From: Eledone cirrhosa
Lineage: Eukaryota
Direction: 5' to 3'
Assembly (NCBI GenBank): GCA_964016885.1
Contig: OZ024764.1
Coordinates: 28,830,001 to 28,894,000, forward strand
Length of the DNA stretch: 64,000 nucleotides
Both the position numbers and the translations under genes were made by a program. Position 1 is the first letter of the stretch, and each line of letters starts with the position of its first letter. Of the stretch, positions 1-56,562 are shown piece after piece. The notes beneath the pieces are model-generated. The model searched no databases and was not told the origin of the DNA. It worked only from the letters and a program-made list of their open reading frames with translations.

Positions 1-3000
1 CGCGAGATGAAACCCTGTCATGTAATGTTATTGACATATCTGCCCCTGTGGCTAATAATTGTCATGTAATGTTATGGTCATCTCTGCCCCTGTGGCTAAT
101 AATTCTGTCATGTAATGTTATGGACATCTCTGCCCCTGTGGCTAATAATTCTGAGAGAGATGAAACGAGTGAGGGATTAGAGTGTTGAAAGAAGAAAGAG
201 AGAGCGAGATGAAATGAGAGAGTGTGAGCGAGATGAAACGAGACAAGGAGAGCGAGATGAAACGAGAGAGTGAGAGCGAGATGAAACGAGAGAGTGAGAG
301 CGAGATGAAACGAGAGAGAGAGAGCGAGATGAAATGAGAGAGAGAGAGCGAGATGAAATGAGAGAGAGAGAGCGAGATGAAACGAGACAGAGAGAGAGCG
401 AGATGAAACGAGAGAGTGAGAGCGAGATGAAACGAGAGAGAGAGAGCGAGATGAAACAGGAGGGAGAGAGAGAGGAAACGAGAGTAGAGAGCGAGATGAA
501 ACAGGAGAGAGAGAGAGCGAAATGAAACAGGAGAGAGAGAGCGAGATGAAACGAGAGGGAGAGAGAGATAGAGGGAGCTGAAACGACAGAGAGAGAGACA
601 GATGAAACGAGAGAGAGAGAGATAGAGATGAAACGAGAGAGAGAGATGAAATGAGAGAGAGGAAGAGTGAGATGGAACGAGAGAGAGGAGGAGAGAGATG
701 GAAGACAGAGGTGAAACGAGAGGGAGAGAGAGCGAGATGAAACGAGAGAGAGGAAGAGAGAGAGCGCGAGATGAAACGAGAGAGAGAGAGCACGAGATGA
801 AACTCTGTCATGTAATGTTATGGACATATCTGCCCTTGGGGCTAATAATTGTCATGTAACGTTATGGACATCTCTGCCCCTGTGGCTAATAACTCTGACA
901 TGTAATGTTATGGACATCTCTGCCCCTGTGGCTAATAATTCTGAGAGAGATGAAACAAGTGAGGGATTAGAGAGAGATAAAACAAGTGAGGGATTAGGGT
1001 GTTGAAACAAGAGAGAGGAAGAGAGAGAGAGAGCGAGATGAAATGAGACAGGGAGAGCGAGATGAAACGCAATAGTGAGAGAAGCGAGATGAAACGAGAG
1101 AGTGAGAGCGAGATGAAACGAGAGCGAGAGAGAGCGAGATGAAACGAGACAGAGAGAGCGAGATGTAATGAGAGAGAGAGAGAGCGGGATGGAACGAGAC
1201 AGAGAGGAAACGAGAGAGAGGAAACGAGAGTAGAGAGCGAGATGAAACGAGAGGGAGAGAGAGATGAAACGAGAGAGCGAGAGAGAGATGAAACGAGGGA
1301 GATAGAGATGAAACGAGAGAGAGGAAGAGAGAGATGGAACGAGAAAGAGGAAGAGAGAGATGGAACGAGAGAGAGGAAGACAGAGATGAAACGAGAGAGA
1401 GAGAGAGAGCGAGATGAAACGAGACAGAGAGAGCGCGAGATGAAACGAGACAGAGAGAGCACGAGATGAAACGACAGAGAGAGAGACAGATTGAAGGAGG
1501 GAGATACAGATAAAACGAGACAGAGAGGAAACGAGAGAGAGGAAACGAGAGTAGAGAGCGAGATGAAACGAGAGGGAGAGAGAGATGAAACGAGAGAGCG
1601 AGAGAGAGATGAAACGAGGGAGATAGAGATGAAACGAGAGAGAGGATGAGAGAGATGGAACGAGAGAGAGGAATAGAGAGATGGAACGAGAGAGAGGAAT
1701 ACAGAGATGAAACGAGAGAGAGAGAGAGAGCAAGATGAAACGAGAGAGAGAGAGCGCAAGATGAAACGAGAGAGAGAGAGCGCGAGATGAAACTCTATCA
1801 TGTAATGTTATTGATATATCTGCCCCTGTGGCTAATAATTGTCATGTAATGTGATGGTCATCTCTGCCCCTGTGGCTAATAATTCTGTCATGTAATATTA
1901 TGGACGTCTCCGCCCCTGTGACTAATAATTCTGACATGTAATGTTATGGACATCTCTGCCCTGTGGCTAATAATTCTGACATGTAATGTTATGGACATCT
2001 CTGCCCCTGTGGCTAATAATTCTGAGAGAGATGAAACAAGTGAGGGATTAGAGAGAGATAAAACAAGTGAGGGATTAGAGTGTTGAAACAAGAGAGAGAG
2101 AGGAAGAGAGGGAGAGAGCGAGATGAAATGAGACAGGGAGAGTGAGATGAAACGCGAGATGAAACGAGAGAGTGAGAGCGAGATGAAACGAGAGAGAGAG
2201 AGAGCGAGATGAAACGAGACAGAGAGAGCGAGATGTAATGAGAGAGAGAGAGAGCGGGATGGAACGAGACAGAGAGGAAACGAGAGAGAGGAAACGAGAG
2301 TAGAGAGCGAGATGAAACAGGAGAGAGAGAGCGAGATGAAACGAGAGGGAGAGAGAGATGAAACGAGGGAGATAGAGATGAAACGAGAGAGAGGAAGAGA
2401 GAGAGGAAGAGAGAGATGGAACGAGAGAGAGGAAGACAGTGATGAAACGAGAGAGAGAGAGAGAGCGAGATGAAACGAGAGAGAGAGAGCGCGAGATGAA
2501 ACGAGAGAGAGAGAGCGCGAGATGAAACGACAGAGAGAGAGACAGATGAAAGGAGGGAGATAGAGATGAAACGAGAGAGAGGAAGAGAGAGATGGAACGA
2601 GAGAGAGGAAGAGAGAGATGAAAGACAGAGGAGAAACGAGAGAGAGAGAGAGCGAGATGAAACGAGAGAGAGGAAGAGAGAGAGCGCGAGATGAAACGAG
2701 AGAGAGAGAGCGCGAGATGAAACTCTGTCATGTAATGTTATGGACATCTCTGCCCCTGTGGCTAATAACTCTGACATGTAATGTTATGGACATCTCTGCC
2801 CCAGTGGCTAATAATTCTGAGAGAGATGAAACAAGGGAGGGATTAGAGAGAGATAAAACAAGTGAGGGATTAGAGTGTTGAAACAAGAGAGAGAGAGGAA
2901 GAGAGAGAGAGAGAGCGAGATGAAATGAGACAGGGAGAGCGAGATGAAACGCAATAGTGAGAGAAGCGAGATGAAACGAGAGAGTGAGAGCGAGATGAAA

Positions 3001-6000
3001 CGAGAGAGAGAGAGAGCGAGATGAAACGAGACAGAGAGAGCGAGATGTAATGTGAGAGAGAGAGAGCGGGATGGAACGAGACAGAGAGGAAACGAGAGAG
3101 AGGAAACGAGAGTAGAGAGCGAGATGAAACGAGAGGGAGAGAGAGATGAAACGAGAGAGCGAGAGAGAGATGAAACGAGGGAGATAGAGATGAAACGAGA
3201 GAGAGGAAGAGAGAGATGGAACGAGAGAGAGGTAGAGAGAGATGGAACGAGAGAGAGGAAGACAGAGATGAAACGAGAGAGAGAGAGAGCGAGATGAAAC
3301 GAGACAGAGAGAGCGCGAGATGAAACGAGAGAGAGAGAGCACGAGATGAAACGACAGAGAGAGACAGATGAAAGGAGGGAGATAGAGATGAAACGAGAGA
3401 GAGGATGAGAGAGATGGAACGAGAGAGAGGAAGAGAGAGATGGAACGAGAGAGAGGAAGACAGAGATGAAACGAGAGAGAGAGAGAGCAAGATGAAACGA
3501 GAGAGAGAGAGCGCGAGATGAATCTCTATCATGTAATGTTATTGATATATCTGCCCCTGTGGCTAATAATTGTCATGTAATGTTATGGTCATCTCTGCCC
3601 CTGTGGCTAATAATTCTGTCATGTAATGTTATGGACGTCTCCGCCCCTGTGGATAATAATTCTGACATGTAATGTTATGGACATCTCTGCCCCTGTGGTT
3701 AATAACTCTGACATGTCATGTTATGGACATCTCTGCCCTGTGGCTAATAATTCTGACATGTAATGTTATGGACATCTCTGCCCCTGTGGCTAATAATTCT
3801 GAGAGAGATGAAACAAGTGATGGATTAGAGAGAGATAAAACAAGTGAGGGATTAGAGTGTTGAAACAAGAGAGAGAGAGGAAGAGAGAGAGAGAGCGAGA
3901 TGAAATGAGACAGGGAGAGTGAGATGAAACGCGAGATGAAACGAGAGAGTGAGAGCGAGATGAAACGAGAGAGAGAGAGAGCGAGATGAAACGAGACAGA
4001 GAGAGCGAGATGTAATGAGAGAGAGAGAGAGCGGGATGGAACGAGACAGAGAGGAAACGAGAGAGAGGAAACGAGAGTAGAGAGCGAGATGAAACAGGAG
4101 AGAGAGAGCGAGATGAAACGAGAGGGAGAGAGAGATGAAACGAGGGAGATAGAGATGAAACGAGAGAGAGGTAGAGAGGGAGGAAGAGAGAGATGGAACG
4201 AGAGAGAGGAAGACAGAGATGAAACGAGAGAGAGAGAGAGCGAGATGAAACGAGAGAGAGAGAGCGCGAGATCAATCGAGAGAGAGAGAGCGCGAGATGA
4301 AACGACAGAGAGAGAGACAGATGAAAGGAGGGAGATAGAAATGAAACGAGAGAGAGGAAGAGAGAGATGGAACGAGAGAGAGGAAGAGAGAGATGGAACG
4401 AGAGAGAGGAAGACAGAGATGAAACGAGAGAGAGCGAGATGAAACGAGAGAGCGAGATGAAACGAGAGAGCGAGATGAAACGAGAGAGAGAGAGAGCGAG
4501 ATGAAACGAGAGAGAGGAAGAGAGAGAGCGCGAGATGGAAATCTGTCATGTAATGTTATGGACATATCTGCCCTTGGGGCTAATAATTGTCATGTAATGT
4601 TATGGACATCACTGCCCCTGTGGCTAATAATTCTGTCATGTAATGTTATGGACATCTCTGCCCCTGTGGCTAATAATTCTGACATGTAATGTTATGGACA
4701 TCTCTGCCCCTGTGGCTAATAATTCTTACATGTAATGTTATGGACATCTCTGCCCCTGTGGCTAATAATTCTGAGAGAGATGAAACAAGTGAGGGATTAG
4801 AGAGAGATAAAACAAGTGAGGGATTAGAGTGTTGAACCAAGAGAGAGAGAGCGAGATGAAACGCGATAGTGAGAGAGGCGAGATGAAACGAGAGAGTGAG
4901 AGCGAGATGAAACGAGACAGAGAGAGCGAGATGTAATGAGAGAGAGAGAGAGCGGGATGGAACGAGACAGAGAGGAAACGAGAGTAGAGAGCGAGATGAA
5001 ACGAGAGGGAGAGAGAGATGAAACGAGAGATCGAGAGAGAGATGAAACGAGGGAGATAGAGATGAAACGAGAGAGAGGAAGAGAGAGATGGAACGAGAGA
5101 GAGGAAGACAGAGATGAAACGAGAGAGAGAGAGAGCGATATGAAACGAGAGAGAGAGAGCGCAAGATGAAACGAGAGAGAGAGAGCGCGAGATGAAACGA
5201 CAGAGAGAGAGACAGATGAAAGGAGGGAGATAGAGATGAAACGAGAGAGAGGAAGAGAGAGATGGAACGAGAGAGAGGAAGAGGGAGATGGAACGAGAGA
5301 GAGGAAGACAGAGATGAAACGAGAGAGAGAGCGAGATGAAACGAGAGAGAGGAAGAGAGAGAGCGCGAGATGAAACTCTCTCATGTAATGTTATCGACAT
5401 ATCTGCCCTTGGGGCTAATAATTGTCATGTAATGTTATGGACATCTCTGACCCTATGGCTAATAATTCTGTCATGTAATGTTATGGACATCTCTGCCCCT
5501 GTGGCTAATAATTCTGTCATGTAATGTTATGGACATCTCTGCCCCTGTGGCTAATAATTCTGACATGTAATGTTATGGACATCTCTGCCCCTGTGGCTAA
5601 TAATTCTGACATGTAATGTTATGGACATCTCTGCCCTGTGGCTAATAATTCTGACATGTAATGTTATGGACATCTCTGCCCCTGTGGCTAATAATTCTGA
5701 GAGAGATGAACCAAGTGAGGGATTAGAGAGAGATAAAACAAGTGAGGGATTAGAGTGTTGAAACAAGAGAGAGAGAGGAAGAGAGAGAGAGAGCGAGATG
5801 AAACAAGAGAGTGAGAGAAGCGAGATGAAACGAGAGAGTGAGAGCGAGATCAAACGAGAAAGAGAGAGTGCGAGATGAAACGAGACAGAGAGGAAACGAG
5901 AGAGAGAGGAAATGAGAGAGAGGAAACGAGAGTAGAGAGCGAGATGAAACAGGAGAGAGAGAGCGAAAAGAAACGAGCGGGAGAGAGAGATGAAACGAGA

Positions 6001-7920
6001 GAGCGAGAGAGAGATGAAACGAGGGAGATAGAGATGAAACGAGAGAGAGGAAGAGAGAGATGGAACGAGAGAGAGGAAGAGAGAGATGGAACGAGAGAGA
6101 GGAAGACAGAGATGAAACGAGAGAGAGAGAGAGCGAGATGAAACGTGACAGAGAGAGCGCGAGATGAAACGAGAGAGAGAGAGCGCGAGATGAAACGACA
6201 GAGAGAGAGACAGATGAAAGGAGGGAGATAGAGATGAAACGAGAGAGAGGATGAGAGAGATGGAACGAGAGAGAGGAAGAGAGAGATGGAACGAGAGAGA
6301 GGAAGCCAGAGATGAAACGAGAGAGAGAGCAAGATGAAACGAGAGAGAGAGAGAGCGCAAGATGAAACGAGAGAGAGAGAGCGCGAGATGAAACTCTGTC
6401 ATGTAATGTTATTGACATATCTGCCCCTGTGGCTAATAATTGTCATGTAATGTTATGGTCATCTCTGCCCCTGTGGCTAATAATTCTGACATGTAATGTT
6501 ATGGTCATCTCTGCCCCTGTGGCTAATAATTCTGAGAGATAGTAAACAAGTGAGGGATTAGAGTGTTGAAACAAGAGAGAGAGAGCGAGAAGAAATGAGA
6601 GAGTGAGAGCGGGATGAAACGAGAGAGGGAGAGCGAGATGTAACGAGAGAGAGAGAGCGAGATGAAATGAGAGAGAGAGAGCGAGATGAAACGGGAGGGA
6701 GAGAGAGATGAAACGAGAGAGAGAGAGGAAACGAGAGTAGAGAGCGAGATGAAACAGGAGAGAGAGAGAGCCAGATGAAACAGGAGAGAGAGAGCGAGAT
6801 GAAATGAGAGGGAGAGAGAGATGAAACGAGAGAGCGAGAGAGAGATGAAACGAGGGAGAGCGAGATGAAACGAGAGAGAGGAAGAGAGAGATGGAACGAG
6901 AGAGAGGAAGAGAGAGATGGCACGAGAGAGGAAGACAGAGATGAAACGAGAGAGAGAGAGCGAGATGAAACGAGAGAGAGAGAGCGCGACATGAAACGAG
7001 AGAGAAAGAGCGCGAGATGAAACGACAGAGAGCGAGACAGATGAAAGAAGGGAGATAGAGATGAAACGAGAGAGAGGAAGAGAGAGATGGAACGAGAGAG
7101 AGGAAGAGAGAGATGGAACGAGAGAGAGGAAGACAGAGATGAAACGAGAGAGAGAGCGAGATGAAACGAGAGAGAGAGAGCGCAAGATGAAACGAGTGAG
7201 AGAGAGCGCGAGATGAAACGACAGAGAGAGAGACAGATGAAAGGAGGGAGATAGAGATGAAACGAGAGAGAGGATGAGAGAGATGGAACGAGAGAGAGGA
7301 AGAGAGAGATGGAACGAGAGAGAGGAAGACAGAGATGAAACGAGAGAGAGAGAGAGCAAGACGAAACGAGAGAGAGAGAGCGTAAGATGAAACGAGAGAG
7401 AGAGAGCGCGAGATGAAACGACAGAGAGAGAGACAGATGAAAGAAGGGAGATAGAGATGAAACGAGAGAGAGGAAGAGAGAGATGGAACGAGAGAGAGGA
7501 AGAGAGAGATGGAACGAGAGAGAGGAAGACAGAGATGAAACGAGAGAGAGAGAGAGCGAGATGAAACGAGAGAGAGGAAGACAGAGATGAAACGAGACAG
7601 AGGGAGAGCGAGATGAAACGAGAGAGAGAGAGCGCAAGATGAAACTCTGTCATGTAATGTTATTGACATATCTGCCCCTGTGGCTAATAATTGTCATGTA
7701 ATGTTATGGTCATCTCTGCCCCTGTGGCTAATAATTCTGTCATGTAATGTTATGGACATCTCTGCCCCTGTGGCTAATAATTCTGACAAGTAATGTTATG
7801 GACATCTCTGCCCCTGTGGCTAATAATTCTGACATGTAATGTTATGGAAATCTCTGCCCCTGTGGCTAATAATTCTGTCATGTAATGTTATGGACATCTC
7901 TGCCCCTGTGGCTAATAAAT
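1..7920 (+). repeat. Compound satellite, GA-rich orientation: 2-7 copies of a 46-bp unit alternating with ~0.6-1.1 kb (GA)n/GCGAGATGAAAC blocks; about 8 monomers of 0.8-1.25 kb
   Basis: Unit CTGACATGTAATGTTATGGACATCTCTGCCCCTGTGGCTAATAATT in blocks starting near 17, 806, 1795, 2726, 3527, 4543, 5379, 6396 and 7647; most GA blocks begin GAGAGATGAAACAAGTGAGGGATTAGAG. Confidence 0.97.
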
Positions 7921-10900
7921 CAGAATTATTAGCCACAGGGGCAGAGATGTCCATAACATTACATGTCAGAATTATTAGCCACAGGGGCAGAGATGTCCAT
8001 AACATTACATGACAGATTTATTAGCCACAGGGGCAGAGATGTCCATAACATTACATGTCAGAAATATTAGCCACAGGGGCAGAGATGTCCATAACATTAC
8101 ATGACAGATTTATTAGCCACAGGGGCAGAGATGTCCATAACATTACATGTCATATTTATTAGCCACAGGGGCAGAGATGTCCATAACATTACATGTCACA
8201 ATTATTAGCCACAGGGGCAGAGATGTCCATAACATTACATGACAGATTTATTAGCCACAGGGGCAGAGATGTCCATAACATTACATGACAGAATTATTAG
8301 CCACAGGGGCAGAGATGTCCATAACATTACATGACAGAATTATTAGCCACAGGGGCAGAGATTTCCATAACATTACATGACAATTATTAGCCCCAAGGGC
8401 AGATATGTCCATAACATTACATGACAGACTTTCATCTCGCGCTCTCTCTCTCTCGTTTCATCTTGCGCTCTCTCTCTTCCTCTCTCTCGTTTCATCTTGC
8501 TCTCTCTCTCTCTCGTTTCATCTCGCGTTCTCTCTCTTCCTCTCTCTCGTTTCATCTCGCTCTCTCTGACTCGTTCCATCTCGCTCTCACTCTCTCGTTT
8601 CATCTCGCTCTCTCTCTCTCATTTCATCTCGCTCTCTCTCTCTCATTTCATCTCGATCTCTCTGTCTCGTTTCATCCCGCTCTCTCTGTCTCGTTTCATC
8701 TCGCTCTCTCTCTCTCTCATTTCATCTCGCTCTCTCTCTGTCATTTCATCTCGCTCTCTCTCACTCTCTCGTTTCATCTCACTCTCAATCTCTCATTTCA
8801 TCTCGCTCTCTCTCTCTCATTTCATCTCGCGCTCTCTCTCTTCCTCTCTCTCGTTTCATCTCGCGCTCTCTCTCTTCCTCTCTCTCGTTTCATCTCGCTC
8901 TCTCTCTCTCTCTCGTTTCATCTCGCGTTCTCTCTCTTCCTCTCTCTCGTTTCATCTCGCTCTCTCTCGTTTCATCTCTGTCTTCCTCTCTCTCGTTCCA
9001 TCTCTCTCTTCCTCTCTCTCGTTCCATCTCTCTCTTCCTCTCTCTCGTTTCATCTCTCTCTCTCGTTTCATCTCTATCTCCCTCGTTTCATCTGTCTCTC
9101 TCTCTGTCGTTTCATCTCCCTCTATCTCTCTCTCGCTCTCTCGTTTCATCTCTCTCTCCCTCTCGTTTCATCTCGCTCTCTCTCTCCTGTTTCATCTCGC
9201 TCTCTCTCCTGTTTCATCTCGCTCTCTACTCTCGTTTCCTCTCTCTCGTATCCTCTCTCTCGTTTCCTCTCTCTCTCGTTTCCTCTCTCTATCGTTTCCT
9301 CTAGCTCTCACTCTCTCGTTTCATCTCGCTCTCTCTCTCTCATTTCATCTCGCTCTCTCTCTCTCGTTTCATCTCGCTCTAATCTGTCTCGTTTCATTTC
9401 GCTCTCTCTCTCTCTCGTTTCACCTCGCTCTCTCTGTCTCGTTTCATCTCGCTCTCTCTCTCTCATTTCATCTCGCTCTCTCTCTCTCATTTCATCTCGC
9501 TCTCTCTCTCTTGTTTCATCTCGCTCTCACTCTCTCATTTCATCTCGCTCTCTCTCTCTCGTTTGATCTCGCTCTCACTCTCTCTTCCTCTCTCTCTCTT
9601 GTTTCAACACTCTAATCCCTCACTTGTTTCATCTCTCTCTTATCCCTCACTTGTTTCATCTCTCTCAGAATTATTAGCGACAGGGGCAGAGATATCCATA
9701 ACATTACATGTCAGAATTATTAGCCACAGGGGCAGAGATGTCCATAACATTACATGACAGATTTATTAGCCACAGGGGCAGAGATGTCCATAACATTACA
9801 TGACGAATTTATTAGCCACAGGGGCAGAGATGTCCATAACATTACATGACAGAATTATTAGCCACAGGGGCAGAGATGTCCATAACATTACATGACATAA
9901 TTATTAGCCACAGGGACAGAGATGTACATAACATTACATGACAATTATTAGCCCCAAGGGTAGATATGTCCATAACATTACATGACAATTATTAGCCCCA
10001 AGGGCAGATATGTCCATAACATTACATGACAGACTTTCATCTCGCGCTCTCTCTCTTCCTCTCTCTCGTTTCATCTCGCTCTCTCTCTCTCGTTTCATCT
10101 CGCTCTCTCTCTCTCTCGTTTCATCTCGCTCTCTCTCTCTCGTTTCATCTCGCGCTCTCTCTCTTCCTCTCTCTCGTTTCATCTCGCTCTCTCTCTCTCT
10201 CGTTTCATATCTGTCTTCCTCTCTCTCGTTCCATCTCTCTATTCCTCTCTCTCTCGTTTCATCTAGCTATCACTCTCTCGTTTCATCTCCCTCTATCTCT
10301 CTCTCGCTCTCTCGTTTCATCTCTCCCTCCCTCTCGTTTCATCTCGCTCTCTCTCTCCGGTTTCATCTCGCTCTCTCTCTCTCCTGTTTCATCTTGCTCT
10401 CTACTCTCGTTTCCTCTCTCTCGTTTCCTCTCTCTCGTTTCCTCTCTCTCTCGTTTCCTCTCTCTCTCGTTTCATCTAGCTCTCACTCTCTCGTTTCATC
10501 TCGCTCTCTCTGACTCGTTCCATCTCGCTCTCACTCTCTCGTTTCATCTCGCTCTCTCTCTCTCATTTCATCTCGCTCTCTCTCTCTCATTTCATCTCGA
10601 TCTCTCTGTCTCGTTTCATCCCGCTCTCTCTGTCTCGTTTCATCTCGCTCTCTCTCTCTCATTTCATCTCGCTCTCTCTCTGTCATTTCATCTCGCTCTC
10701 TCTCACTCTCTCGTTTCATCTCACTCTCAATCTCTCATTTCATCTCGCTCTCTCTCTCTCATTTCATCTCGCGCTCTCTCTCTTCCTCTCTCTCGTTTCA
10801 TCTCGCGCTCTCTCTCTTCCTCTCTCTCGTTTCATCTCGCTCTCTCTCTCTCTCTCGTTTCATCTTGCGCTCTCTCTCTTCCTCTCTCTCGTTTCATCTC

Positions 10901-37700: not shown

Positions 37701-37783
37701 CAAAGGCAGGCGAAAGGGGTGGACAAACGAGCTGCTACTAGAGCAAAAGATAACAGTATCGCGAGGAGCACTGGGAAACCTCT

Positions 37784-37993
37784 CTAATGATTTTTTAGGC
37801 AAGCCAGCACGTCTGCAGCGTTACCTCGGGCGATGGCGAGGCTGAGGAGCTGGAACAACCAAGTGCCCTCACGAGCTTCACCAGTCACCTTCGTCAGGCT
37901 AGCCGCCAGTGAAGATAGGAATCTCGCAGTCAGTATCCCGACTCCCCCAAACGCCACAGGCTGGAAAATGTAGTTAGCCGACAGATCACAGTA
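37784..37993 (-). pseudogene. CRE-like ORF C-terminal fragment ending in a stop codon (duplicate 52858-53067)
   Basis: Open 70 codons: YCDLSANYIFQPVAFGGVGILTARFLSSLAASLTKVTGEAREGTWLFQLLSLAIARGNAADVLACLKNH*. Confidence 0.8.
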
Positions 37994-38017
37994 TTACTTA
38001 ACAGTGATAGATATTCT

Positions 38018-38095
38018 GTCTAAAGGAGGGGCGTGCAACAGGCGGCCCGCGGGCCACAATCGAGCCCACCTGACCAGTCAGAGTGGCCCGCAATG
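38018..38095 (+). mobile_element. hAT/Charlie-like 5' end remnant (duplicate ~53093-53145)
   Basis: GTCTAAAG then GAGGGGCGTGCAACAGGCGGCCCGCGGGCCACAATC...GTGGCCCGC, resembling Charlie-type subterminal GGCCCGCGGGCC motifs. Confidence 0.5.
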
Positions 38096-38145
38096 ACTGT
38101 TGTAGGCTTATTTAGAATTTTTTCCATACCCGTAATACTTCTGTT

Positions 38146-38402
38146 AGTTGACCTATACTAAAGGACTTCACTGATAGGGTTATATGTGTTATAATTTCCC
38201 AGTTGACCTATACTAAAGGACTTCACTGATAGGGTTATATGTGTTATAGTTTCCCAGTTGACCTATACTAAAGGGCTTCACTGATAGAGTTATATGTGTT
38301 ATAGTTTCCCAGAGGGCTTCACTGATAGGGTTATATGTGTTATAGTTTCCCAGTTGACCTATACTAAAGGGCTTCACTGATAGAGTTATATGTGTTATAG
38401 TT
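38146..38402. repeat. 55-bp minisatellite, 5 units (one truncated)
   Basis: AGTTGACCTATACTAAAGGACTTCACTGATAGGGTTATATGTGTTATAGTTTCCC at 38146, 38201, 38256, 38352. Confidence 0.95.
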
Positions 38403-38640
38403 TGAAACAAACTACCTGCATCAGTTATTATACTTTTATAACACCGCTATATTACCTACATGAAAGAGGTAAATATTTATTTCTCTTGTCTTCTTAAATG
38501 TATAGAACATTTTTCTTATATATATTCTTAACATAGCTAGGACCGTTTATTATTTACTAGTCTCTACTCCTAGGACTTTGCTGGTCTCATGTCCCCTCCA
38601 TCAACACACACTCGGTAGAAAGCTGGTCGTCGGAGGTAAA

Positions 38641-38784
38641 GTGGCCCTGATTACAGGTCTAGTATTGAAGCCTTTCGGCTTGAGCCTTGCTGATGCCTAC
38701 AGAGTTCCTGTGGTAGTTTTGGTAGCACAGGTGACATTTTATTGTGTTTAGGTACCGGCTAGTGCGGACACAGAGAGCACAACC
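38641..38784 (-). pseudogene. Decayed PHD finger, probably retrotransposon-derived (copies 53874-54017 and 63228-63371)
   Basis: GCALCVRTSRYLNTIKCHLCYQNYHRNSVGISKAQAERLQY*TCNQGH; C4HC3 spacing is restored by three single-base changes (TCT>TGT, TAG>TGG, GGC>TGC). Confidence 0.75.
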
Positions 38785-38975
38785 AGGTGGTGAGCTGGCA
38801 ACGACCAAGTGTAGAGGGCCAGCTTTGAAATTCGAGCGACGGAGTGAACTAGTAAAAGAGGCAGGGTAAGCAGCATTGGTTCTAACGGTGGGACTAGAAC
38901 GGAGGTTGGGTGGTGCTGGGGGTGGGCTAACAGCTAACAGTTGTAGGAGTGGTGGGGGTTTGCTAGGATTAATTT

Positions 38976-43917: not shown

Positions 43918-44018
43918 GGAATAATTATATTCTGTTGTTTATTATGTAATTAAATAGCTCTGTACAATACATAGAGCATTCTTCTTTTCTTTACCTTTTC
44001 TATGGAAATACAAGAACA

Positions 44019-44061
<43 letters not shown>

Positions 44062-46606
44062 ACATACATAAACAAGACTGTTATTGCTCCAACCAGTCTA
44101 TTTACCTTTGATAACTATCCTAAATATAAATACACCTATACCATACATACATATATCATATATGTTTTTGATGCCATGGTATAGCAGAGATAAGCAAGAA
44201 GAGAAAAGAAAATGAAAATGAGAAAAAAAAAGAAGTAAGAAGTCGGGGGAGGGACAGACACTTCACCCCAGTCTAAGTGGTCCCTCAGCCGCAACCTGTG
44301 GAAGAAACGTAAAAGCGTTACCTCAGAGCAAGGCCAGAGACACCTGCTACAATAGTCGCCCCTCCTCATGAAGCTCCTGTCGTCTTTCCTCCCGACTTTA
44401 TGGAGGAAATCAGCAGTACAGGGACCAAGTATGGCAGAGGTCTCAATGGAGTGGAAGAGGTGAGTCAGGCCTTGGTACTATCTTACTATCCTCTGCATTG
44501 CGGGGTGTGGAGCCTAGGTTTGTGGCTGTAGCTATATTTGAACTTTTATATGAAATTTCAGTTTTATATTTTTCACATCATAAAACTTAATCTTAGTCTT
44601 TTGCAGCTCATCTTGTTTCATCTCTCAGCACACGATTTGGGAACCACTGCTCTAGAGATAGAAAAAGTATATTTTATGCAGGGCTTCCCTGAGACATAAA
44701 AACTATTTCAAGAGATCGACATGGGTAGAAAGGTTGAGAATGCTGCACAATGTTCTTTGGTTTTTGTTCACCTTTAAATAATCATGTATAAAATATCGGG
44801 TGTGCAAGATTTCATGAAAAGGTATAACATTATTTATGCTGATCTTGCAGGGACTAGCTCCAACTGAGAGTTGTACCAATTCCCACTAAACTCGAAACTC
44901 CTGGACAATATATACATATCTTTATAAGTTCCTGTGTATTGTGTCGCTGTATAATGAAACATAAATATATACCATGCATGTCAGTCAGATTTGAACTCAC
45001 TATATTTGGCGTTTTATAGATATAATTTGTTTGTTAAAACAATTGATTAAATAATAACTAAATAAAATTAATTCTACAATCCTGGATAGGGAATGAACTA
45101 GAAGCCATCTATTCGAGCAGTATTGCCATCTAAGCCACCAGGTTACTTACAGAACTTCATTCAAATATAAAATATAAAATATATGCCAGACATAGTGAGT
45201 TCGAATCTGACTGATTAGTTGGTCATTGTCGCAGCCAACAGTTTAAATCGCCAACCAGTAGGTGACATCGACTAGGTTGGGAAAACTTGGTTAAGTAGCT
45301 CCAGTTATTGCTACGTTAGACATATTCAAGACTTATCGACACTGAATGGAAGAAAGGTAAAGTTGAACTCAGAGTAAAGAACTGGAAAAATACTGCAAAG
45401 AATTCTATCTGATGTTCTAACAATTCTACCAAGTTACCTTATGTATATATATTTATATCTAGTGATAAGAAGAAAACTGAAAGAAAGAAAAGAAAAAAAA
45501 TGAGACCTTATATGTAACCCATGTTACAACTCAATATATATATATTTGGGTTGTAACATATTCCTGCCGGTGAAATAAAAATTTTAATAGAAAAACGGCG
45601 GGAATATATGTTACAACCCAATCTATATATATTTGAGTTGTAACATATATTCCCGCCGTTGAAATAAAAATTTTAATAGAAAAACGGCGGGAATATATGT
45701 TACAATCCAAGCTACATATTTTTGGGTTGTAATATATATTCCCGCCGTTGAAATAAAAATTTTAATAGAAAAACGGCGGGAATATATGTTACAACCCAAC
45801 CTATATATGTTTGGGTTGTAATATATATTCCCGCCGTTTTTATGTTAAAATTTTTATTTCAACGGCGGGAATATATGTTACAACCCAAATATATGTAGAT
45901 TGGGTTGTAACATATATTCCCGCCGTTTTTCTATTAAAATTTTTATTTCAACGGCGGGAATATATGTTACAACCCAAATATATGTAGATTGGGTTGTAAC
46001 ATATATTCCCGCCGTTTTTCTATTAAAATGTTTATTTCAACGGCGGGAATATATGTTAAAACCCAAATATATATAGATTGGGCTGTAACATATATTCCCG
46101 CCGTTTTTCTATTAAAATTTTTATTTCAACGGCGGGAATATATGTTACAACCTAAATATATATAGATTGGGTTGTAACATATATTCCCGCCGTTTTTCTA
46201 TTAAAATTTTTATTTCAACGGCGGGAATATATACCCTGAGAGACTGAGAAATCTCTTTCAAAGAGATTTCTCAGTCTCTCAGGGTATATTTGCAATGGTG
46301 GCAACACAACCTTTCCTTTATTACAACAGTTACAATTTTCATTTCTAAATTTCAAAGCTCCACAGTGATCACACGAAACATTCATATCACTAATATGAAA
46401 TCCTTCTACATTTCCATTAATATTAATTGTTGGCCAATTTCTCTTACGACGCTCATTATCCATTCTTCTCTGTCTGAATGTTTTCCAGTCTAAGTCTATT
46501 TGCATGGAATAATTATATTCTGTTGTTTATTATGTAATTAAATAGCTCTGTACAATACATAGAGCATTCTTCTTTTCTTTACCTTTTCTATGGAAATACA
46601 AGAACA

Positions 46607-46644
<38 letters not shown>

Positions 46645-48120
46645 ATATACATAAACAAGACTGTTATTGCTTCAACCAGTCTATTTACCTTTGATAACTA
46701 TCCTAAATATAAATACACCTATACCATACATACACATATCATATATGTTTTTGATGCCGTGGTATAGCAGAGATAAGCAAGAAGAGAAAAGAAAATGAAA
46801 ATGAGAAAAAAAAAGAAGTAAGAAGTCGGGGGAGGGACAGACACTTCACCCCAGTCTAAGTGGTCCCTCAGCCGCAACCTGTGGAAGAAACGTAAAAGCG
46901 TTACCTCGGAGCAAGGCCAGAGACACCTGCTACAATAGTCGCCCCTCCTCATGAGGCTCCTGTCGTCTTTCCTCCCGACTTTATGGAGGAAATCAGCAGT
47001 ACAGGGACCAAGTATGGCAGAGGTCTCAATGGAGTGGAAGAGGTGAGTCAGGCCTTGGTACTATCTTACTATCCTCTGCATTGCGGGGTGTGGAGCCTAG
47101 GTTTGTGGCTGTAGCTATATTTGAACTTTTATATGAAATTTCAGTTTTATATTTTTCACATCTTAAAACTTAATCTTAGTCTTTTGCAGCTCATCTTGTT
47201 TCATCTCGCAGCACACGATTTGGGAACCACTGCTCTAGAGATAGAAAAAGTATATTTTATGCAGGGCATCCCTGAGACATAAAAACTATTTCAAGAGATC
47301 GACATGGGTAGAAAGGTTGAGAAATGCTGCACAATGTTCTTTGGTTTTTGTTCACCTTTAAATAATCATGTATAAAACATCGGGTGTGCAAGATTTCATG
47401 AAAAGGTATAACATTATTTATGCTGATCTTGCAGGAACTAGCTCCAATTGAGAGTTGTACCAATTCCCACTAAACTCGAAACTCCTGGACAATATATACA
47501 TATCTTTATAAGTTCCTGTGTATTGTGTCGTTGTATAATGAAACATAAATATATACCATGCATGTCAGTCAGATTTGAACTCACTATATTTGGCGTTTTA
47601 TAGATATAATTTGTTTGTTAAAACAATTGATTAAATAATAACTAAATAAAATTAATTCTACAATCCTGGATAGGGAATGAACTTATAACTTCATAATAGA
47701 AGCCATCTATTCGAGCAGTATTGCCATCTAAGCCACCAGGTTACTTACAGAACGTCATTCAAATATAAAATATAAAATATATGCCAGACATAGTGAGTTC
47801 GAATCTGACTGATTAGTTGGTCATTGTCCCAGCCAACAGTTTAAATCGCCAACCAGTAGGTGACATCGACTAGGTTGGGAAAACTTGGTTAAGTAGCTCC
47901 AATTATTGCTACGTTAGACATATTCAAGACTTATCGACACCGAATGGAAGAAAGGTAAAGTTGAACTCAGAGTAAAGAACTGGAAAAATACTGCAAAGAA
48001 TTCTATCTGATGTTCTAACAATTCTACCAAATTACCTTATGTATATATATTTATATCTAGAGATAAGAAGAAAACTGAAAGAAAGAAAAAAAAAAATGAG
48101 ACCTTATATGTAACCCATGA
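43665..48120. repeat. Two-copy version of the 2.7-kb tandem repeat
   Basis: Shared ORFs at 44136 and 46719; one palindromic array between the copies. Confidence 0.95.
45523..46228. repeat. Nested-palindrome 89-bp array, copy 4 (3 forward + 5 inverted)
   Basis: Same unit as 25371; flip point near 45805. Confidence 0.93.
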
Positions 48121-48659
48121 CCGGGATTGAAACCGAAACCAGGACTACCACCATCTCTGGTATCACCCACCAGACCACCATGAAAGATTAAAAAATCTGC
48201 TTTTTTAATCTTTATAACCCTACTTTCAATATTAAAGTAATTAACATGTGGTGTTGTTCATGCCTTTCTCTATGTTATTGGTAAAAAATAAAGTATTTAA
48301 ACCTCAAATTTTGTTATTCAAATATGCTTGCTTATGTAATTATAAATGTCGCAGAATACACACACATATATAGATGTGAAAATATTCAGGACCCCAACGG
48401 CTGTGCTACTGCCGTTTCGACATCTATATATATATCTTTTAGTCCTAGGCTCTTTCAGCGCAGAAAGAATTCTCCAATGATCACAATCAGCTAATGGTGC
48501 CCAGTGGAAGCACTTTTAGTCTAATTATAACCCCAACGATCACGATTAGCGGCGGCTTTTTCGAGTCTGAGGTTGACTGCCAGCTATATATATATATATA
48601 TATTTTTATACTTTGCTAGAATCCCGGAGAACAACAGAAAGATGCTGAGTTCAGAGTTT

Positions 48660-49354
48660 AAAAAACATGTCCCCTTTAATATAAAAACAATCCGAGTCTT
48701 GTAAAAGTGTTATTACTGTAATATAAAGTAGAAACCCTTTATTTAAACAAAGCTGCGATGCAGCGATCATCAAAGCAAACCCCAAAATGTAAACAAACTT
48801 CTCGCAGGTGCTGCCAGATACACGATAACATGTGTATACGAAGTGTAACAGGGAGTTGGGTCGTATTATATGACTTTCAAATTGACCCCTATTATATTCA
48901 AATTATCCGCTGTGGGGCGTGCACCCCACGTTGAGAATCCCTCATAAATAAATATATGTGAGTGTGTTGCTATGACTGCTATTTCTAGCAGGTTTACTGC
49001 AGTCCTGTAGACGCACAACAAAAACCGGAAGTGGCAGCCATTAAAAAACTTTGGCTTAAAATCAGCCAAAAGATTTTCAATAATAGTAAAATTTTATTTT
49101 TGACAAGGACGATAACTTTTGTCTTACTTAATCGCAAAAATCGAGGCAAAAATTTTGAGGGTGTGCAGTTTACACGCTAAAAATAAACCTGCTAGAAATA
49201 GCAGTCATAGCAACTCACTTACATATATTTATATATCATATATATATATATATGATATATATATTGACACTTTAGAAATAGCAGCGAATAACAGAAAGGA
49301 CACACACACATATATATATATATACACACACACACATATATATATATGCCCTAG

Positions 49355-49406
<52 letters not shown>

Positions 49407-50335
49407 TATATATATATGCCCCAGCATACACACACACACACACATATATATACATATATATATATATGCCCCAGCATGGTCTTGGACGATCGTCTAACTA
49501 AGGCCAATAATAAAATACTTCAAAATAAATTAAACACTACTAAATCCGGGGTTACAACTTGGATTACTTAAAAGTCAGTAAAGCTGTAAAGATTCTATAT
49601 TGTAAATAGGTGGTCGCATGTTCGAATCCGGGCAAATCCCGAGAAAAATAACAAAAAGGACAATGTAAAAATAACAGCCATAGACGAGAGGAGGACACAC
49701 ACATATACACACACATGTATATATATATATATGTGTGTCTGTGTATGTGTTTGGCTGCTATATATATATATAGCGGTCAACACACACACACGTACATATA
49801 TAAGGGTGTGTGTTTGGCTGATATATATATATATATATATATATATGATATATAAATATATGTGAGTTGCTATAACTGCTATTTCTAGCAGGTTTATTTT
49901 AGCGTGTAAACTGCACACCCGCAAAATTTTTGCCTCGATTTTTGCGATTAAGTAAGACAAAAGTTATCGTCCTTGTCAAAAATAAAATTTTACTATTATT
50001 GAAAATCTTTTGGCTGATTTTAAGCCAAAGTTTTTTAATGGCTGCCACTTCCGGTTTTTGTTGTGCGTCTACAGGACTGCAGTAAACCTGCTAGAAATAG
50101 CAGTCATAGCAACACACTCACATATTTTTATTTATGAGGGATTCTCAACGTGGGGTGCACGCCACACAGGGGATAATTTGAATATAATAGGGGTCAATTT
50201 GAAAGTCATATAATACGACCAAGCTTCCAGATACACTTCGTATACACATGTTATTTGAAGTTTGTTTTGATCATCGCTGCATCGCAGCTTTGTTTAAATA
50301 TAGGGTTTCTACTTTATATTACAGTAATAAAAGTT
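48660..50335. repeat. Long inverted-repeat element, second copy, with different inner arms and spacer
   Basis: Mirror ORFs 48866-49069(-)/50010-50213(+) and 49119(+)/49960(-). Confidence 0.9.
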
Positions 50336-50466
50336 TTACTTCGTCTACACATGTTATCGTGTATCCGGCAGCACCTATGGGCTGTTTGTTTATACTTTGG
50401 TGTTTATTTTGATCATCGCCTCATCGCAGGTTTGTTTAATTAAAGGTTGCGAGGGGGATCACTGAC

Positions 50467-50686: not shown

Positions 50687-53158
50687 GTGTATATATATAC
50701 AGACACACACTGTTGTTTCTTGATTTTTAGCTGCTGTTTCTAAAGTGTCTATTAATATATGCTAGAAATAGCAGTCAAGGGAACATTTACGTATATATAT
50801 GTAAGGACAGTGACACCTGCTGCAACAGGCATCCAACCTCGTGGGACTCCATCCTCAGACGGGCCACAGACACTGCGATGTTGCGGAGGAGCTCGGCTGT
50901 AATGGGTCCAAGTTGGCCCGGGGTCTCGACGGCGGCTGGTGCTTAGAAGAGGCTCCAGGACAAACACCGGAATTTGTTTATTTTATGTTCATCTGCGAGA
51001 CGGGCAGCGATGCTGGGGTTTGTGGATCTACCTCCTTCGAATGGGAAGAGGGTGATTCCCTCGCGGTGCTTGCCATCTCCGCGGCCTAGGCCTGCTGGCT
51101 CCAGTTGAGATGGAAATTCAGCTGCGTCCAGGCTTCTTCTCACTATGTCGTTGAGAGCATTTATGTGGCTCACACACGCGGAGGCCAAGGCGTTGGGCTA
51201 CTCCGATGCGAGTTCAATCATCATCAAGAATTTATTTGAATTGAAAGGTCACTAAACTAATATAGGAGTGTCATTTAAAAATAAGGTAAACAGAAATAGT
51301 TACACCGGTAACATAATTACTGTTACACCGGTAGTTCACTAACAATTCATTTCACGTTCCTCTCTAACAGGTAATGTTTTAATTTGCTCTCCATGTTGGG
51401 GAGTAACTGTAGTTTGGCTTGCTAGGGGGTCATACATCTTCATACACACATACTATATATATATATACAAAGGAAAGGAAGATAAACAAATATCAGAGGA
51501 TTTGACCGGCTTCTTCCTCTTGGCACCTGTAGCCACCATGACGTATAAGTATAAATACATATCTATCTATCTATATATATATCATCATTTTCATTTTACG
51601 TCTGCTTTTCCCTGTTTGCAAGGGTGGGGCATATATATATATATCATCATCATTATACATCCACTTTTCCCCGCTTGGCAGCACCTACGAGAAGTTTGTT
51701 TTGATCATCGCTGCATCGTAGCTTTGTTTAAATAAAGGGTTTCTACTTTATATTACAGTAATAATACTTTCAGAATACTCGGATTGTTTTTATATTAAAG
51801 GGGAACATAAACATATTTTAGAGGAGGGGTGTGGAACAGAAAAGTTTGGCGACCACTGATACACACACACATTTATTTACTATATATATAATATATACAT
51901 ATATATGTCTGTGTGTGTATACTATATATATATATATATGTACAGGGAGGTCGAAGCATTTCAGAATTTTTCTAGGCGGCGGGGGGGGGGGTGCAAATCC
52001 CCCTCTTTATATCAATTAGCACACACTCTCTCCCTCTCTATATCTACTACACGGCACTCTCTTCCAATACCCCTCTCTATATGAAGTAACACCAAACTCT
52101 CCCCCTCTCTATATATTAAGCACTAAGTCAGGAATTTTTTTCTTCTTTCGTGCAGAGAGAGTAAAGTTGATTAAATCTACTGCAGTGAATTACTGGTATT
52201 TTATTTAATAAAAATTAAAATTTACTATTTGTCTTCGTTTAATTTTCGTTTTTCTTTACATAGTTTCGTTTCGTTAAATGTCTCCAGAATTTGTTTTTAC
52301 TTTTACCGGATATTGAAGGTGTAAACTTGGTGTTGTCTAGAAACGTGTTAGAAATATTTTTCTTTTAATTGTGAAGAATTTAACCGCAAAGTAAGTTTTT
52401 TTTACTGTTTATTTGTGGCTGGGACAACGTATGGTATGTGTTAATGTAAATGGTGAAGGTTTAAAGATTCTTTTTACAACTGAAAATCAGTTTGTTGTTG
52501 CTGCTAATTACTTAACGCATGGAATAGATTAAAAAAATACAGGATTGTTTCTCGGAAGAGAGAAAGAAGGAACAAAACAAATCACAGAAGCGGGTAGCAC
52601 ACACATTTGGGACCACATACAACACAAAAACAGGTAATGCACACATCTGGGACCACATACAACACACCAGCAGGTAATACATACATCTAGGACCACATAA
52701 GCAGGTAATACACACATCTAGGACCACATACAACACACAAGCAGGTAATACACACATCTAGGACGACATACAACCAAAGGCAGGCGAAAGGGGTGGACAA
52801 ACGAGCTGCTACTAGAGCAAAAGATAACAGTATCGCGAGGAGCACTGGGAAACCTCTCTAATGATTTTTTAGGCAAGCCAGCACGTCTGCAGCGTTACCT
52901 CGGGCGATGGCGAGGCTGAGGAGCTGGAACAACCAAGTGCCCTCACGAGCTTCACCAGTCACCTTCGTCAGGCTAGCCGCCAGTGAAGATAGGAATCTCG
53001 CAGTCAGTATCCCGACTCCCCCAAACGCCTCAGGCTGGAAAATGTAGTTGGCCGACAGATCACAGTATTACTTAACTGTGATAGATATTCTGTCTAAAGG
53101 AGGGGCGTGCAACAGGCGGCCCGCGGGCCACAATCGAGCCCACCTTAATACTTCTGTT

Positions 53159-53635
53159 AGTTGACCTATACTAAAGGACTTCACTGATAGGGTTATATGT
53201 GTTATAATTTCCCAGTTGACCTATACTAAAGGACTTCACTGATAGGGTTATATGTGTTATAGTTTCCCAGTTGACCTATACTAAAGGACTTCACTGATAG
53301 GGTTATATGTGTTATAGTTTCCCAGTTGACCTATACTAAAGGGCTTCACTGATAGAGTTATATGTGTTATAGTTTCCCAGAGGGCTTCACTGATAGGGTT
53401 ATATGTGTTATAGTTTCCCAGTTGACCTATACTAAAGGACTTCACTGATAGGGTTATATGTGTTATAGTTTCCCAGTTGACCTATACTAAAGGACTTCAC
53501 TGATAGGGTTATATGTGTTATCGTTTCCCAGTTGACCTATACTAAAGGACTTCACTGATAGGGTTATATGTGTTATAGTTTCCTAGTTGACCTATACTAA
53601 AGGGCTTCACTGATAGAGTTATATGTGTTATAGTT
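53159..53635. repeat. 55-bp minisatellite, 9 units (one truncated)
   Basis: Same unit as 38146. Confidence 0.95.
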
Positions 53636-54207
53636 TGAAACAAACTACCTGCATCAGTTATTATACTTTTATAACACCGCTATATTACCTACATGAAAGA
53701 GGTAAATATTTATTTCTCTTGTCTTCTTAAATGTATAGAACATTTTTCTTATATATATTCTTAACATAGCTAGGACCGTTTATTATTTACTAGTCTCTAC
53801 TCCTAGGACTTTGCTGGTCTCATGTCCCCTCCATCAACACACACTCGGTAGAAAGCTGGTCGTCGGAGGTAAAGTGGCCCTGATTACAGGTCTAGTATTG
53901 AAGCCTTTCGGCTTGAGCCTTGCTGATGCCGACAGAGTTCCTGTGGTAGTTTTGGTAGCACAGGTGACATTTTATTGTGTTTAGGTACCGGCTAGTGCGG
54001 ACACAGAGAGCACAACCAGGTGGTGAGCTGGCAACGACCAAGTGTAGAGGGCCAGCTTTGAAATTCGAGCGACGGAGTGAACTAGTAAAAGAGGCAGGGT
54101 AAGCAGCATTGGTTCTAACGGTGGGACTAGAACGGAGGTTGGGTGGTGCTGGGGTGGGCTAACAGCTAACAGTTGTAGGAGTGGTGGGGGTTTGCTAGGA
54201 TTAATTT

Positions 54208-56562
54208 TTACATCTGTCTGTGAACTCTTGAAAAAGCAACATACAATTGTCCAGGGTTAAATACTTGCTCAGGGAGGAACAGACCCACTTTATCATGTAT
54301 TTGACCATGGTTCTTGTTGATTGTCATGGCATATGACAGTCTTAATGGAAACTGGGGTCTTTCCAAAGTAAAAGGGATGTTGGCACCACTGGGGGATAAC
54401 TTCAGTCTTGGGATCAAAACACACCTGCCCATCAAAGGACCATAGATATGAGAAGCTTTGATAAAATGTTTATGCAGTTCTACTACTTCTAATCTTGTGC
54501 CATTACATAATCTGTTCTGGATTGAAATATTCCATAGAAGCATTATTATTGATCCTGCTTATAATTGGAGTTTGTGAGGCGGCATCCCAGAAGGTGTAAG
54601 CAAGTTCTTTTAGCTTGAACCAGGCAGCAAGGGTCCCTGCATTTCTACCACAACCTGAGCATTGCCTCTTTGAAAGTAAACTCTGTTTGTTCTCCAGGTG
54701 TGTGACTAGGCTGTATACTGTATGTGATGTACCATGAAGCTTAAATTCCGAGAGACACGACACTGCTTCTGGCTGAGACACATACCTGCAACAAAGATAG
54801 GTTCTTATTTCATCATGGTTGTGTTGGTTCTGAGCCTCATTAGGTAATGCATTATTCGTTACTTCTATAGATGTACAATCATGCCCCATGTAACATATTT
54901 AAAGAGGTACTTGACACTTTTTACAGAAGCGCAAACTTCAACATTAATATGTGCACAATATTTCTTAATCAAAAAGGCATTAAATGGCACAACATTCCTG
55001 TTATCTACTGAATGTCATCCAATTTACACTGCAGTTCCTGTCTTGCACCTCCTGTACTCTGGGTATCCATTTAGGTTCAATAATGTTTCCCTTCTGTAGG
55101 TTTTTGGATAGTTCTTTTGGAAAAATCCATTTTGTATAAATGGGGGAAAAGGGTTTCCAGAACCACATGGCCTGTGGATCATAAACTTTTAAACCTGCTC
55201 ATGTAGTACTGGATCATCTTCCAATGCAGGTATTTCTGCTGACACGATTCTGTCAATGTCTTCTCTGTTTCTTATCTTGTCTTCATTTTTTAAGGCTCAG
55301 TGTTATCATCTGTTTAGATAATTCATTAAACCATTATACTCATCCACTCACAATTGGGCTTGATTGTTCCTCAAATATTGAAGCCTGCATCCCTCTACTT
55401 TCATATAGGCATCCACTAAATACTGCTAAAATAATTTACCTGCCCTATATATCGCACTAAATCCTCCTCTATATGCTATACAGTATATGTAATACTCCTG
55501 CATTGTCAGTCTATTGCAAACACAGGTCCTGCATTCCTCTCCATGTCACTATGCCACCAAAATTCACCATTATGGGTCAGTCATGAGGTCCAAGTGGCAT
55601 GAATTATGTGATATTTTCTGAGGAGGATGGTCTTTAGGAAAGATGATAATATCTCTTTGTACAGGTGGTCTGCCCTCAAACCCCACAAAACAACAGCTAT
55701 CATTACTAGTTGGTAAATTATAGCAGCTCATATCTGATCCTCTTCTAAATCTTAATTCACAGTTCTGTACACGACAATTTTCTCTTCTTGCACTTTGCTG
55801 TTTGATGCCATGCATTGTATTGTACACTTCGACATATGGATAACATTCATGCAACACCTCTCTTATCATAGCCATTTTTTGTGGTGAGCAGTCATTATTT
55901 GTTGGTACTGGGGCGGTGGATTGGCAGTATCGGTAGAGCATCAGACACCATGCTTTGCAGCATAGGGTTATGGCCCTTTACGTTCTGGGTTCAAATCCCT
56001 CCAAGGTTGACTTTGTTTTCATCCTTATTAGGTCGATAGAATAAAGTACCAGTAATTGCTGGCCTTGTGCCAGAAACAATTATTTGGTTGTACTTCCAAT
56101 CTGTGCTACACACCTTCGTTCCCATCAATAATATATAACTGGCCATATTGTGGTGTATTTTCTGCAGGTTACAGAGGTGGGGGTGTAGTGATATGTTTGA
56201 CCCTGAATATGAAAGCTATACGGGCCTCTGCCGGGTGGTAACACCAAATGAAGTGAAATAAATGTAGTTTTAATTGCAGATGTTTCTGTGAAATCAACTG
56301 CTTCCTGGCCTCTTTCAAAGAGATTTCTCAGTCTCTCGGGGTATATTTGCAATGGAGGCAACACAACCTTTCCTTTATTACAACAGTTACAATTTTCATT
56401 TCTAAATTTCAAAGCTTCACAGTGATCACACGAAACATTCATATCACTAATATGAAATTCTTCTAGATTTCCATTAATATTAATTGTTGGCCAATTTCTC
56501 TTATGACGCTCATTATCCATTCTTCTCTGTCTGAATGTTTTCCATTCTAAGTCTATTTGCAT
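54208..56562 (-). mobile_element. Internally deleted Helitron RepHel without the satellite insertion (most contiguous copy)
   Basis: Collinear ORF fragments 56125-56562 (Zn finger), 55570-55941 (YNLPTSND..RDIIIF..LDLMTDP), KYLFKY ~54895-54912, 54503-54889, 54208-54543 (Pif1-like C-terminal motifs). Confidence 0.93.

Follow-up and report, generated by a model that had tools for sequence, protein, structure and literature searches.

Euchromatic clusters of Rsp-like and of 1.688 satellites in Drosophila are described as existing satellites at new sites, with microhomology and short extra sequence at their junctions (PMC7403614). The same account describes single monomers beside larger clusters, local growth through unequal exchange and higher-order units that move, and proposes fork stalling and template switching or microhomology-mediated break-induced replication (FoSTeS/MMBIR) (PMC7403614). 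Here we analysed a 64,000-nt stretch of Eledone cirrhosa (contig OZ024764.1; hereafter, the window) in which a compound satellite, made of 46-bp units and TC minisatellite DNA, interrupts the remnant of a Helitron, a rolling-circle transposon. This locus works most like the Drosophila clusters. It differs from what is described of them in its landing site, which there is another satellite and here a dead transposon gene. Moreover, the unit is here a compound of two minisatellites, 0.8-2.2 kb long, and 56 kb of sequence show the site empty, with a single monomer and with the expanded array.

Other described systems share some features with the locus. The Cg_HINE Helentrons of the Pacific oyster, of the DINE-1/DINE-TR1 type, are presented as rolling-circle elements with tandem repeats inside, two types being consecutive in some of them; their arrays vary in length and orientation, and some have Helitron sequence on one side only (PMC7492417, PMC12628747). 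However, those elements are described as short and non-autonomous, with sub-terminal repeats and many dispersed array-bearing copies (PMC7492417, PMC12628747). Here the repeat interrupts a decayed RepHel frame, brings foreign flanking DNA with it and lies beside a 3-bp duplication, and we found no ends of that kind. In Lathyrus sativus, a short array embedded in a retrotransposon occasionally expands and is long in a few copies; those arrays are a normal part of a dispersed long terminal repeat (LTR) family, while here we deal with one later insertion in a remnant lineage (PMC7004042). Truncated-Helitron rolling-circle arrays (Xiong et al. 2016, as summarised in PMC12628747) also consist of head-to-tail partial copies. 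In contrast to them, the unit here holds long interspersed element (LINE), fold-back and minisatellite DNA from outside the element, and its mosaic structure fits unequal crossover. Among the papers listed by our literature search, none describes the 46-bp/TC repeat. The locus is, in our view, an unusually clean example of processes that have already been described.

The insertion site, at codon ~340 of the RepHel remnant, is found in three states. All comparisons between copies were made within the window unless stated otherwise. In copy C the site is uninterrupted (55791-55812) and contains a single TGA (55803-55805). In copy B, TGA flanks a 2,583-bp insert on both sides (40575-43157, + strand). 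In copy A the right junction (23031-23048, + strand), with TGA at 23039-23041, borders an array of more than 22 kb. A further copy, D, is partial. A first-pass annotation of the window had proposed the uninterrupted Helitron site near 55803, the 2.6-kb insert with one 46-bp block and one TC block, and the same right junction near 23041 beside an array of about 16 monomers; our analysis bears out all three, with 7.5 units in the insert and 17 blocks counted in the array. By exact search, the left flank string occurs only at 40560 and 55791, and the 18-nt right junction only at 23031 and 43150. Since these junctions are embedded in alignments of 1-4 kb with 93-98% identity (22119-26080 against 42284-46232, 94.8%; 38162-40574 against 53381-55805, 98.4%; 43158-44150 against 55803-56793, 97.5%), a chance match is excluded. 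The empty state is the ancestral one, because RepHel homology (amino acids 141-512 of the related protein P0001) crosses the empty site and breaks at amino acids 340/341 in B. The right side of the big array joins the Helitron at 23039 and its left flank lies beyond the window edge; that the array is inside a Helitron holds for its right side only. The same annotation had inferred here the birth of a satellite inside a Helitron. One locus in three states, an ancestral empty site and a lone monomer devoid of derived characters agree with part of that proposal, but birth inside or through the Helitron is not supported, the frame being already dead and the repeat apparently imported when already diversified.

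The insert of B starts with a short filler (40575-40591), followed by 7.5 46-mers (40592-40935), a TC ladder with one 27-mer (40936-41789), a degenerate TC tail (41790-42260) and ~900 bp of non-repeat DNA (42261-43157), which within the window is present only in the inserts of A and B. In copy A, the orthologous tail occupies 21780-22105 (+ strand) and the non-repeat part 22106-23038 (+ strand), with a stretch resembling a short interspersed element (SINE) at 22294-22418 and 1.6-2.3% divergence from B. We dated the insertion between the split of C (2.1-2.8%) and the split of A and B (1.3-2.3%). The minisatellites were likely imported from a donor elsewhere and not born in the insert, because the diversity of the ladder and its shared anchor unit are too great for the interval between both splits, and the insert carries a foreign flank. 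The junction has features that a templated insertion may leave. The filler and two flank bases have a 15-nt inverted match at 44610-44624, 1.45 kb downstream of the site, together with a 2-nt overlap. Outside the junction, this 15-mer is confined, in inverted form, to the six 2.7-kb sub-units, and none of 300 Markov-resampled flanks reached a match of 15 nt. A brief inverted filler that comes with microhomology and a very small duplication would be in keeping with repair by template switching, and neither a 3-bp duplication nor inverted filler is known as a Helitron mark. The matches are only suggestive of a filler copied, in inverted orientation, from the nearby template.

Two other origins were considered and rejected. 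The insert is not a terminal inverted repeat (TIR) or cut-and-paste transposon: it has the 3-bp duplication, but its ends are not complementary. Copy C did not arise by precise excision, as there is no transposase signature and the empty form is present in three of four runs of outside contigs. As a separate observation, the segment 44585-44650 and its five repeats contain a 15-nt core of the TC minisatellite, either as the source of that core or by a chance match; 44585-44650 has an end that may be like that of hAT-type miniature elements.

The array of copy A (1-22105) comprises 17 46-bp blocks with 117 parsed units. It is bipolar: nine blocks (1-7918) oppose eight blocks (7921-21779), and the two arms meet head to head inside a 46-mer (7893-7950), with a 25-bp stem, a 7-nt spacer and 2-nt microhomology. 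The left arm (- strand) has 40 46-bp units and GA-strand minisatellite blocks, with periods of 0.8-1.25 kb, and continues past the window edge. The right arm (+ strand) has 77 units and TC blocks, with periods of 1.26-2.24 kb. The arms differ in period, monomer variants, lineages and ages, and are not mirror copies further out. Due to the inversion at ~7920, a Helitron flank on the left of the big array is not guaranteed. A single-read fold-back artefact was rejected as the origin of this inversion, since the arms hold different monomer lineages. All 17 monomers have the same anchor unit in the TC ladder and many unit types in order, and the inner TC-to-46 joints are at the same position in 16 out of 16 cases. 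Right-arm monomers R1-R7 were recently homogenised (0.11% block-private changes, alternating types), while R8 is a diverged edge monomer, 4-7% from R1, L2 and B. With at least 22 kb, homogenised multi-unit periods and a diverged edge, the array is a satellite with a higher-order repeat. Block-private changes in the 46-mers amount to 1.05% in B, 0.67% in R8 and 0.75% in the left arm. According to these rates and that of R1-R7, the array would have begun to diversify about when B split, and the right-arm burst would be recent.

Contigs from outside the window came from four runs of 11 listed, with four organism labels; X7, which had a share of 0.20 and consisted mostly of short pieces, was left aside. 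An empty continuation at 40574 is present in contigs of three of the four runs, and the 46-mer in all four. Among the pieces listed, the inner TC-to-46 joint was found in X1, the derived 46-to-TC joint in X1 and X4, and the B-type joint in X2. Since pieces from the labelled organisms depart from the window in only a few letters each, and these organisms may belong to the same species, the outside contigs do not date the satellite. Contig depth in 46-mer bins was ~158,000-213,000 in X4, against mostly 1,000-3,600 in Helitron bins; the corresponding values were 287-435 against mostly 6-17 in X1, and 34-79 against mostly 2-15 in X2. Such depths do not measure copy number, and ~124 units already stand against 3-4 Helitron copies in the window itself; we therefore did not take these values as evidence of abundance elsewhere.

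The first-pass annotation also placed the three states in tandem Helitron copies. These are not three independent Helitron copies, as the one in the middle is mosaic, and what is repeated is not the element but a segment of 15-20 kb. Besides a 2.7-kb sub-repeat and a 55-bp minisatellite, this segment contains a fold-back element and the end of a LINE, and its junction (36621/36622 and 51676/51677) is at a LINE 3' end fragment, where the LINE end that goes on in C is cut. The junction lies ~1.8 kb from the Helitron boundary, and the arrangement is not that of a rolling-circle tandem Helitron array. Copies B and C show 14 differences in 3,358 positions up to 40298 (counted in 36622-40298) and 32 in 1,267 after it (Fisher p = 3e-9), that is, ~0.4% on the left and ~2.5% on the right of ~40298; the observed change-point statistic was reached in none of 5,000 permutations. 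Right of the switch, B differs from A by 1.3-2.3%. At 40299, 40314, 40342 and 40490 the majority of outside contigs agrees with C and not with B, and at 39737 and 40057 X4 and X1 have a letter other than the one common to B and C; 45 further variant rows exist beyond the sites listed. B is thus of the empty-copy type on the left and of the insert-bearing type on the right. The tract 36303-40298, nearly identical to its counterpart beside C, includes the duplication junction and the 55-bp minisatellite, and the exchange zone would be 40058-40298. One unequal crossover in this zone, between empty and insert-bearing paralogs on two haplotypes, is the likely cause, and the same mosaic would also result from a conversion tract or from haplotypes misjoined in the assembly. 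The three-way comparison of A, B and C is star-like and gives no order of copies. The left half of the insert-bearing lineage is outside our view, B being of C type there. A and B would then be former alleles, which would also account for the 3.7 and 1.7 copies of the 2.7-kb unit that they carry, respectively.

The remaining components of the duplicated segment can be described briefly. A decayed LINE with reverse transcriptase matches lies on the minus strand at 59157-61550, and only its ~210-bp end is kept in A and B at the junction. The fold-back element (34070-35295 and 48701-50339) has ~470-bp inverted arms around microsatellite-rich DNA. Copy C (53664-56793, - strand), which holds the uninterrupted RepHel remnant with its empty TGA, keeps one fold-back arm, marking a deletion of ~5.7 kb with respect to B. 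The 55-bp minisatellite (38146-38403 and 53159-53636) has 41-bp variants and differs in length between copies, and a 40/31-bp compound minisatellite (37509-37710 and 52583-52784) is found in the flank common to B and C.

The host sequence is a Helitron by its Rep and PIF1 helicase homology, with collinear tblastn pieces in four copies. The closest relative of the window frame, and the only one among 73 candidates, is P0001 (E 7.6e-30), which is a full RepHel by Pfam (PF14214, PF05970 and PF21530 above cut-off); PF21530 was found in two of the three helicase-end frames scanned. Copy C aligns collinearly with amino acids 141-512, 633-867 and 1368-1498 of P0001, the first tblastn alignment spanning the empty site. 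In B the alignment is interrupted by the insert, with amino acids 341-512, 633-867 and 1367-1498 on its left (38431-40574, - strand) and the rest of the remnant on its right (43158-44150, - strand). Copy A retains amino acids 154-340 (23039-23983, - strand), with a SINE-like insert at ~23152-23320. Amino acids 513-632 and 868-1367 are absent from B and C, the HUH motif region and the helicase Walker A/B motifs are deleted, and C has 9 and 7 stops in two aligned stretches; neither B nor C has the intact RepHel, HUH and Walker A/B of an autonomous Helitron. The SINE-like insert, of ~170 bp and with A- and B-box-like motifs, interrupts the RepHel frame in A, B and C. Since this frame break is common to empty and filled copies, the Helitron was already dead before the satellite insertion. 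The SINE-like pieces may resemble octopus SINEs. Rfam at gathering scores gave no matches in 22000-64000, and ARAGORN gave no tRNAs.

Regarding the ends of the element, B, C and D have an identical left boundary (38431, 53664 and 63052) with a weak hairpin 17 nt inside. A canonical Helitron end (3' hairpin and CTRR, 5' TC, A/T insertion) was not found: the shared boundary lacks a CTRR, of the 12 CTRR sites in 38400-38980 not one combines a clear terminal hairpin with a change of flank, and the 5' end was not located. Helentrons or HINEs are defined by paired sub-terminal repeats, a 5' inverted repeat and a 3' stem-loop around a central array (PMC7492417). Here a weak stem lies close to the boundary, and the 11-13-mers at the boundary were not found a second time in exact form; their one-mismatch inverted matches sit in the fold-back element and in unrelated DNA. 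Copy D (63052-64000, - strand), a partial remnant 1.2% from B and C, shows the same boundary with a different flank and three small deletions; it may mark a real element end. A ~40-bp RepHel stretch in 39444-39531 has very deep contigs and a short internal back-jump (X4, X1), and resembles another abundant repeat.

We favour, with a probability of about one half, that a piece of compound minisatellite was imported into a dead Helitron, remained single in one allele and expanded in another, and came to lie beside an empty paralog by unequal crossover. A break at TGA would have been primed on the nearby inverted 15-mer or on the opposite strand of the satellite. A template switch would then have copied, once, the edge of a donor array located elsewhere, with its flank. 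One non-homologous joining could have made a dimer in one allele, which unequal exchange would have amplified past 22 kb, with an internal inversion and the recent R1-R7 burst, while the other allele kept one monomer. Finally, a crossover at 40058-40298 between misaligned paralogs would have duplicated ~15-20 kb, A and B being former alleles ~1.4% apart. The role of the Helitron would be limited to providing a landing site and the homology for misalignment, so it was probably a bystander and not the cause. That the lone monomer is a true seed is supported by the fact that B has none of the nine derived structural characters that mark sub-lineages of the array. Besides, the best one-crossover mosaic of a visible monomer and edge R8 leaves four conflicts with B, or three if we count the T1 variant of L9.

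Several observations weigh against this proposal. With respect to the filler, two of 156 control 23-mers gave 17-nt matches. The opposite strand of the satellite alone matches 13-14 nt of the filler, the local template being better by 1 nt exact only (18/19 with a gap), and the local match was identified after the fact. The donor locus was not found, and the 46-mer core had no matches in metagenome and viral contigs. None of 23 out of 110 loose ends and 30 out of 549 pieces of the outside contigs bridges the left junction of B, which proves nothing alone. Within the TC ladder, 5 of 263 positions separate B from inner R1, against 14 of 235 for edge R8 (p = 0.02), and the data marginally reject a clock-like star (p = 0.04), as would be expected after a collapse or a conversion from the array. 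A seed should be basal in a monomer tree, as the first-pass annotation expected; B falls in a group with left-arm monomers and is not clearly basal, 4 of 13 inner branches being starred. Whole-block pairwise distances vary with block length and were left out of the dating. Moreover, the array's left edge falls beyond the window, and a seed-like monomer would also be rebuilt if two edges that had escaped homogenisation collapsed. Weighing all this, we assign to the seed about even chances, and to a collapse or a multi-monomer donor clearly lower ones.

Collapse is the rival that best survives, although we consider it doubtful. The insertion would have brought, or soon built, at least two monomers, and B would have fallen back to one by exchange between first and last monomer, for which homologous exchange is sufficient. 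In a variant of this idea the donor piece had two monomers, and then the higher-order unit was not born here either. The ladder, in which B is nearer to R1 than to R8, points in this direction, as do the left-arm private changes, lower than those of B, according to which the array was diversifying about the A/B split. So do the inner TC-to-46 and derived 'gac' joints in contigs of other labelled organisms, where the listed Helitron site is empty. However, those organisms may be conspecific with the window. The orthologous TC tails differ at 13 of 315 positions, similarly to B and R8 (p = 0.33) and above the unique flank (48 of 3,204, p = 0.002), so TC DNA is noisy and fast, and the edge distance needs no older array. 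B is also without nine out of nine derived characters and is no one-crossover mosaic of visible monomers.

Somewhat less probable, and compatible with either a seed or a collapse, is that a fold-back palindrome has the big array at its centre. The sequence left of the window would then mirror the right side, with tail, unique flank and an inverted Helitron right half in place of the Helitron left flank, and the array would be more than an expanded insert. In favour of this are the head-to-head inversion with its 7-nt spacer and the four fold-back joints in the vicinity, which have 30-bp stems. Nevertheless, the arms hold different monomer lineages instead of mirror copies, and L9, beside the inversion, shares several states with B, as a former first monomer would after a simple inversion.

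The 30-bp-stem fold-backs belong to a second repeat in the same lineage. The 2.7-kb sub-unit is repeated 3.7 times in copy A (23546-33498) and 1.7 times in copy B (43665-48119), and each joint in A carries a bipolar array of 89-bp double hairpins and a fold-back. These arrays are at 25369-26226, 28066-28923, 30789-31646 and 45521-46289, the last delimited at 45521-46232 as the one array of the B sub-unit. Each of them switches polarity and ends by folding back, with a perfect 30-bp stem, into the RepHel remnant, where a short natural inverted repeat served as primer. Their site is uninterrupted at ~33498, and in B a different insert of ~25 bp is present at ~48119-48150. The 89-bp arrays have the look of a separate capture by template switching within this lineage, with amplification to three arrays in A and one in B. 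It is tempting to go further and propose a fragile site that twice captured unrelated satellites (46-bp/TC and 89-bp) by template switching, each amplified in one allele (17 or more monomers versus one; three arrays versus one), with the lone monomer as true seed and a higher-order unit that arose here and is now spreading in a species group. We regard this extended proposal as unlikely. If it were true, the locus would document at the level of single bases, and in a form that can be dated, how a new satellite went from an empty site to an array.

An assembly artefact, in which array and single-monomer haplotypes were joined in tandem so that the states are alleles and not neighbours, seems improbable to us. 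A and B differ by 0.4-1.6%, as alleles do, the switch is within homologous DNA and the adjacency is known from the assembled sequence alone. Yet the join would need ~240 bp of identity between paralogs diverged by ~3%, in an assembly that resolves monomers 0.3-1% apart, which an accurate-read assembler would presumably avoid. Least of all do we expect a Helitron-driven birth, in which the element, moving by rolling-circle transposition, took up the repeat as its central array and gave rise to the tandem copies, in the manner of DINE-1 or Cg_HINE. In its favour, the host does derive from a RepHel, and copy D, with the exact boundary, another flank and the weak hairpin, suggests that the remnant may once have moved. 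Against it, the frame had already died when the insertion took place, the tandem copies join outside the boundary at the LINE fragment, there is neither CTRR at the boundary nor an exact second sub-terminal repeat, the duplication and inverted filler are not known as marks of Helitrons, and the empty form is dominant in outside contigs.

In summary, the passage from a single unit to a long array is usually inferred from scattered loci or from different species. Here, empty, one-monomer and expanded forms lie within 56 kb, with base-exact junctions and 1-3% apart. As the forms share these junctions and are so close, the direction, timing and first step of the expansion are testable with population long reads. 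The locus is also a warning that a satellite found within Helitron sequence need not be Helitron-borne, and that tandem copies may fit ordinary unequal crossover.

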